Shown here: one piece after another, positions 50,980 through 51,300 of the stretch
Layout: each line of letters begins with the position of its first letter
Numbering within the stretch: the stretch's first letter is position 1
Assembly: GCA_026770705.1 (NCBI GenBank)
Contig: JANJGN010000011.1
Span: 148,118,001 to 148,182,000 of the forward strand
Direction: 5' to 3'
DNA length: 64,000 nt
Source: Isurus oxyrinchus
Taxonomy: Eukaryota
Program-made: the position numbers and the translations under genes
Notes under the pieces: model-generated
What the model saw: only the letters and a program-made list of their open reading frames with translations
Told to the model about the DNA's origin: nothing
Databases searched by the model: none

Positions 50980-51300
50980 TGATCTTTGCTCAGGCATCTC
51001 TTTGGATCTAGCGTCTCTCATTTCAAATCCTATCCAGTCCTTCTCATGGTCAGTGGACAGATGTTGGAAGGACGAAACAACATCCATTGTGACATGGAAG
51101 CCAACACCTACGATTATTTCATACTTTTGGTGGATGTGGCACAATGATAACATAGCATGGACTGTAGCAAAGGGCAAAAGCTGAGAAACACTATCAGCTG
51201 TCCACTGCAGATGCCAAACTATCTTGACATCTTGGATCCTCCTTGCATCTGGGATTATGTTGATGCACCTGGGGGTGAGGTTGGTGGTGATACAAGTACA
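50980..51300 (+). pseudogene. Decayed GATD3/ES1-like (class I glutamine amidotransferase-like, DJ-1/PfpI superfamily) gene
   Basis: Collinear motifs across frames: IFA, SHGQ, MEANTYDYFIL-GGCG, W-TVAKGKS*, ETLSAVH, QTILTSWI, PGGEVGGDT, versus family motifs QIFAP, SHGQ, LDANSFDAVIFPGGxG, WAVKGKDC, VLKAFH, KPIGLCCI, PGCEVTVGHD. Confidence 0.55.

Follow-up and report, generated by a model that had tools for sequence, protein, structure and literature searches.

Within the GATD3 family (DJ-1/PfpI fold, PF01965), the human enzyme GATD3A is reported to be a deglycase of mitochondria that has E62 and C176, hydrolyses glutamine and lowers glyoxal adducts using C176 (PMC8935817), and zebrafish ES1 is reported to make cone mitochondria larger (PMC4772128). 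Our trees of 63 and 42 proteins divided the vertebrate members into three lineages: A, which is GATD3/C21orf33 (GATD3A, HES1); B, the si:ch211-153b23.5 type (gatd3l); and C, the zgc:162944 type, with B and C as sisters (SH-aLRT 99). Lineage C includes proteins from teleosts (P0221), birds (P0421, P0570 and one encoded on the metagenome contig L006), a turtle (P0428) and a newt (P0447). Lineage B is represented in sharks and rays by intact 225-aa proteins (P0181, P0254, P0255), and no shark or ray lineage-C protein appeared among the matches listed (the best 120-150 hits). The newt protein (NDU88_003313) is 149 aa long, with internal deletions and GCFG replacing GGFG; this may reflect either decay of the lineage-C gene in the newt as well or a misprediction of the protein. 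In the literature searched, with most subscription papers, supplements and figures lying outside it, we found no function for lineage C and no account of the pseudogene discussed below or of three GATD3 lineages.

The exon structure of lineage C was read from L006 (positions 1-5843), which is vertebrate host DNA with a protein identity of 97-98% to bird lineage-C proteins and is too short to reach neighbouring genes. The bird exons measure 172, 205 and 193 nt; exon 2 is followed by an intron of 1824 nt, which interrupts the first Gly codon of the GGFG motif, and exon 3 by one of 1314 nt. Teleost exon-fragment proteins break at the same points, and the breakpoints of mispredicted proteins place the introns of lineages B and C at the same positions. 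The intron pattern of lineage A is unlike that of B and C, and is partly echoed by the breakpoints of P0519 and P0536.

The window analysed here is a 64,000-nt stretch of the Isurus oxyrinchus genome, and an earlier note on it had placed a GATD3-like gene between FBXL3 and CLN5 in birds and teleosts. Such a gene is indeed present in the chicken neighbourhood, where the gene list of PMC10976558 places MYCBP2, FBXL3, ES1ML1, ACOD1, KCTD12 and CLN5 at chromosome 1, 155-156 Mb, and ES1ML1 probably belongs to lineage C. For teleosts, the source of the stickleback lineage-C protein P0387 (KAL6101170.1) labels it 'fbxl3', a misannotation that suggests a position beside FBXL3. Through these two indirect clues, the chicken list and the stickleback label, lineage C is the GATD3 lineage tied to the FBXL3-CLN5 locus. 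Zebrafish fbxl3a and cln5 are not adjacent according to the accessible text of PMC8875760. The tail of P0373, considered as another synteny clue, gave no match by tblastn. A second, divergent 225-aa GATD3-like protein (P0569, XP_067841592.1), from the accession series of the shark record P0254, resembles the bird proteins in an additional residue at the exon 3/4 joint, and its KGKSC corresponds to KGKS and a stop in the window. We considered P0569 as a shark lineage-C gene and set it aside: in the tree it joins B on a long branch, with a C placement not rejected (p-AU 0.06).

In the window, a gap of ~10 kb between MYCBP2 (+) and CLN5 (-) contains a GATD3-like candidate. The left landmark of this interval is formed by the last exons of MYCBP2 (40574-41797, +; PDB 6T7F/5O6C match, E 4e-35), which end in a stop at 41795-41797. 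On the right, the last exon of CLN5 and the covered stretch below it, its likely 3' UTR, occupy 51304-52719 (-; PDB 6R99, E 2.8e-70; stop at 52207-52209) and are covered by contigs X1-8, X6-31 (spliced to 53952) and X13-15. The likely 3' UTR of CLN5 terminates beside the candidate, which lies at 51091-51297 (+) and would comprise the last ~14 codons of exon 2 together with exon 3 of a lineage-C GATD3 gene. We read it as the non-coding remnant of such a gene at its likely ancestral site between FBXL3 and CLN5, and we put the probability of this reading at about 0.58. The candidate encodes no protein: no open frame runs across the motifs, and the stretch reads with at least three frame changes, a six- to seven-codon deletion and one stop. 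A 1144-nt contig from run X1, a probable RNA run possibly of the same individual, corresponds to 50177-51320 with one differing letter and no gaps, so the motif-breaking letters at 51094-51294 are not an assembly slip; contigs of this kind carry no strand or level information.

All nine motifs that the earlier note had listed are present in the sequence on the + strand: VMKGCEVF (50000-50023), IFA (50982), SHGQ (51042), MEANTYDYFIL (51094-51126), GGCG (51129-51140), WTVAKGKS followed by a stop (51158-51184), ETLSAVH (51185), QTILTSWI (51215-51238, opposite the family's KPIGLCCI) and PGGEVGGDT (51268-51294). Their spacing, described as correct, is roughly so for the last five (51094-51294) and is not for IFA and SHGQ. 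Measured against the lineage-C protein P0221, with family anchors picked by the analyst, the offsets from IFA to PGGEV are -39, +22, -1, -4, -18, 0 and +2 nt. The best-preserved spot is the site of the PGGFG motif (51124-51140), which reads as L, a 2-base codon and then GGCG. The stop was also correctly placed where the family has Cys, being a TGA (51182-51184, +) one base off TGT/TGC. The likely nucleophile Cys of the family's GLCCI is absent, as would be expected of a fossil, the window reading LTSWI with TCT (Ser) in place of the Cys codon; this Cys, opposite QTILTSWI, is presumably human C176, and the register between QTILTSWI and KPIGLCCI is not always kept in the best lineage-C path.

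The upstream motifs fared less well in the codon model set out below. When the first 44 columns of exon 2, to which IFA and SHGQ would belong, were shuffled, the result stayed the same (198 of 400 decoys scored as high), and exon 2 alone was equalled by 169 of 200 decoys, leaving 50968-51090 (+) without measurable GATD3 signal. VMKGCEVF, suggested as an upstream piece, found no backing either: exon 1 at 50000 fell outside the best 6 of 84 tiles and ranked 141-150 of 424, and neither there nor anywhere else in the interval was exon 1, with its N-terminal GCGV(Y/F)DGxE motif and catalytic Glu, supported. Exons 1 and 4, the first and last of lineage C, were both not found in the interval by the model, and the exon 3/4 joint was not supported at the candidate. 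Two pieces aligned by eye were rejected, namely a second exon-2 piece at 50037-50120, unsupported by the codon model, and an exon 4 at 51300-51460, which fared worse than its decoys (239 of 300 as high). The latter had looked persuasive, and alignments of this kind therefore weigh little.

Standard homology searches did not recover the candidate. The + strand frames matched no Pfam family at E<=10 (PF01965 included), and none of the six frames at the candidate matched an NCBIfam family (NF008747 included); as a control, the lineage-C protein P0221 matched ElbB in NCBIfam at E 2.2e-81. With tblastn, 120 and then 571 family proteins gave no match to the candidate at E<=0.05, the best match in the window being a chance one (E 0.005) to a MYCBP2 exon read in antisense. 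Single-protein BLOSUM frameshift alignments scored the candidate at window background, and in the best case, with the shark lineage-B protein P0254, 2 of 200 shuffles scored as high and another tile tied. The ESM Atlas gave no usable match and Rfam no match at the candidate. CLN5, sought in metagenome contigs, and P0221, sought in viral contigs, were not matched. The candidate thus fails the family library tests, lacks both catalytic motifs and does not warrant annotation as a GATD3 gene; the furthest label that the evidence allows is "candidate GATD3-like remnant".

The frameshift-aware search with GATD3/ES1 proteins proposed in the earlier note was accordingly negative at the level of standard tools, and a modest excess, confined to 51091-51297, appeared in a purpose-built codon model. 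In this model the family profile was back-mapped to codons and subjected to neutral decay, with frame changes and gaps allowed and scores summed over paths. Column-shuffled decoy profiles served as the preferred null, over 50 tiles for the interval and 508 for the window. Against the order-2 background of the window, the candidate scored at background level. Against the local background, none of 300 dinucleotide shuffles scored as high for lineage-C exons 2 and 3, a null that overstates the case because real tiles and the reversed profile often beat shuffles too; by excess over shuffles the candidate ranked 6 of 508. An earlier power estimate was discarded as biased, random DNA scoring a median of 22 bits under order-2 scoring. 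The trials spanned about 8 profiles, 6 segments, 3 settings and 2 backgrounds, with setting p2 selected once the by-eye alignment was known; the figures that follow are therefore somewhat favourable to the case.

At the candidate tile itself, decoys for exons 2 and 3 scored as high in 1 of 1000 cases for lineage C, 13 of 1000 for B and 37 of 1000 for A; divided further, the counts were 2 of 1000 for teleost C, 119 of 1000 for tetrapod-only C and 98 of 1000 for shark B. The best signal is therefore for lineage C, by a small margin over A and B that is carried by the teleost rows. For a trimmed core, the interval-best decoys did as well in 7 of 300 cases with C, in 18 of 120 with B and in 77 of 120 with A. 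In a local test over the full length, with no boundaries set by choice, 19 of 150 decoys were as good in the interval. When bird codons were taken into account, the candidate ranked first of the 508 tiles with an excess of 10.9 bits, and no on-tile decoy of 400 scored as high; across the interval, decoys were as good in 3 of 200, 11 of 400 and 26 of 200 cases under three settings. Bird synonymous codons contribute a little at the fixed place, synonymous shuffles of them scoring as high in 108, 85 and 48 of 1000 cases (exons 2 and 3, exon 3, core); among eight control tiles, none gave fewer than 25 of 200. The signal was carried by the last 14 columns of exon 2 and by both halves of exon 3 (1, 2 and 18 of 400 decoys as high), and no single exon stood out from its decoys when exons were tested separately. 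Along the best lineage-C path, identity to the profile consensus was ~24% (15 of 63 codons). Taken together, the model evidence for a GATD3 remnant is suggestive and near the chance limit, and is not proof.

The alternative to be weighed most seriously is chance resemblance, in which short motifs in ordinary non-coding DNA below CLN5 would have been lined up, with five or six gaps, by a reader expecting GATD3 there; we regard this as less likely than a remnant. When bird codons were left out of the model, 64 of 400 decoys equalled the candidate somewhere in the interval (none of 60 in a smaller first run), and even with the best model, the bird-codon one, 27 of 100 did so across the whole window. 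The reversed profile produced eight listed tiles with a greater excess over shuffles than the candidate, and the rejected exon 4 just downstream had looked equally good by eye. The antisense of the MYCBP2 exon (39945-40097, -), a chance GATD3-like match that gauges the rate of false positives, gave not only the better tblastn match but also the second-best model tile, at 8.9 bits. Against coincidence, however, the top tile of 508 sits in the predicted 6-kb gap and favours the predicted lineage, and the signal draws on three distinct parts of the profile. An origin as a piece of an old transposon or low-copy repeat, with an accidental likeness to GATD3, is improbable. It would fit the summed contig depth of DNA run X17, which is 231-233 over 50439-51372 versus 58-73 in flat bins, so that part of these bins, at a place within them that is unspecified, has look-alikes elsewhere at 80% identity; three CCAAT sites and one octamer-like site at 50334-50953 also point in this direction. 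Set against it, neither Pfam nor NCBIfam matched a transposon or any other family, leaving the better transposon match that the earlier note had named as contrary evidence unseen, and Rfam was likewise silent; there is no second copy within the window, nor are there convincing terminal or flanking repeats. As a separate observation, CCAAT/ATTGG boxes lie at 50330-50960 and the octamer-like CTCATTTGCATA recurs at 49407-49423; these sites could be the remnant of an old promoter or of a repeat. A stop-free antisense frame of 123 codons (50938-51309, -), one of 90 such in the window and with all Atlas matches below 0.8, is probably due to chance.

A retrocopy had been offered in the earlier note as one of two explanations for the absence of introns found in human GATD3; it would be a spliced lineage-A or lineage-B mRNA inserted here and then decayed. 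The comparison with human GATD3 was the wrong one, the bird lineage-C gene having introns of its own; what holds is that one bird intron position is crossed and that the intron is apparently absent. This position, equivalent to bird intron 2, lies at 51127-51131 (+) and is without an intron if the 14 codons upstream are real. There the joined exon 2/3 model exceeded a decayed acceptor followed by exon 3 by 3.2-3.9 bits, and the bases at the joint also resemble a pyrimidine tract. As the candidate crosses only this single intron position of the bird lineage-C gene, a retrocopy is not needed to account for it, and we consider it very improbable. The spliced look of the joint, worth 3-4 bits, would suit a retrocopy, as would a tandem AATAAA on the + strand, but A and B fit less well than C, the 3' coding exon that retrocopies usually keep is absent, no A-run follows the tandem signal, and insertion into the family's own ancestral gap would be a coincidence. 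The tandem AATAAA (51452-51461, +) stands on the strand opposite CLN5, ~155 nt past the candidate, in a window in which AATAAA occurs 122 times. The marks of a processed pseudogene, namely a 3' coding end, a poly(A) tail and target-site repeats, are absent at the candidate, where age could have removed them.

Compared with living relatives, the candidate resembles lineage C in its best-fitting profile, in what is probably the FBXL3/CLN5 neighbourhood and in having Trp, not Phe, after the KNL motif, and on the lineage-C map it covers exon 3 and the closing part of exon 2. It differs in having no open frame, in the apparent absence of intron 2, in an exon 2 whose first three quarters are signal-less and in exons 1 and 4 not being found. 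With lineage B it has in common the KGK and DT letters, whereas its fit is poorer than to C and the lineage-B genes seen in sharks are intact; lineage A, of the same family, gives the weakest fit on the tile and in the interval alike. Unitary pseudogenes are genes decayed at their own locus, and the candidate resembles them in its syntenic place, its frame changes and its stop codon. Most described cases align clearly to a living orthologue, whereas the candidate does not. A pseudogene at a syntenic site is of a known kind, and gene decay of this type is ordinary.

Under the reading of the stretch as a lineage-C remnant, the jawed-vertebrate ancestor would have carried the sister genes B and C, with intron positions in common and C at this locus. 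An intact B in sharks and rays would have made C redundant and thus dispensable, and lineage C would have decayed neutrally in place to ~0.6-0.8 substitutions per site, its exons 1 and 4 having become unrecognisable by decay or having been deleted. For a real remnant, the loss of intron 2 probably preceded the decay and came about through deletion or through the substitution of a spliced copy. Simulated fossils of three proteins outside the profile reached the observed excess at ~0.6-0.8 substitutions per site; when decay was set to 0.4, a score as low as the candidate's came up in only 0-1 of 40 simulations. The available part of one study gives a dS of 0.06-0.11 for whale shark compared with zebra shark over ~50 My (PMC13100897), from which we extrapolate a decay of 0.25-0.5 over the ~400-450 My since the bony-vertebrate split. 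This shark rate counts against a fossil, because a real one at such a level of decay should score far higher, unless the lineage evolved faster.

The neighbouring gene bears on this rate. FBXL3 is an adaptor of a clock ubiquitin ligase. Pieces resembling it were noticed by eye at 43280-43560 and 45000-45600 (+), by comparison with short motifs, in the expected order and strand and with many breaks; to the eye they look as decayed as the candidate and would fit a high decay rate. No intact FBXL3 frame was seen between MYCBP2 and CLN5, and neither five single-frame PDB searches nor Pfam returned FBXL3 in the supposed pieces; a PDB match there to platelet factor 4 (E 0.019) was set aside as chance. 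It is a tentative and rather doubtful proposal that a shark or ray lineage long ago lost both FBXL3 and lineage-C GATD3 in place, the latter after its intron loss, with MYCBP2 and CLN5 staying intact on the two sides and with P0569 as a surviving orthologue in another shark that would date the loss. The zebrafish and human FBXL3 proteins are 86% identical according to the accessible text of PMC8875760. A loss of FBXL3, if true, would matter to clock biologists, and is a claim separate from that of the GATD3 remnant.

For the family, a DJ-1-like repair of glyoxal adducts, as reported for human GATD3A, cannot come from 51091-51297. If the remnant is real, lineage C once stood at this locus in cartilaginous fishes and was lost there while its sister B survived, which would be a minor footnote to the evolution of the family.
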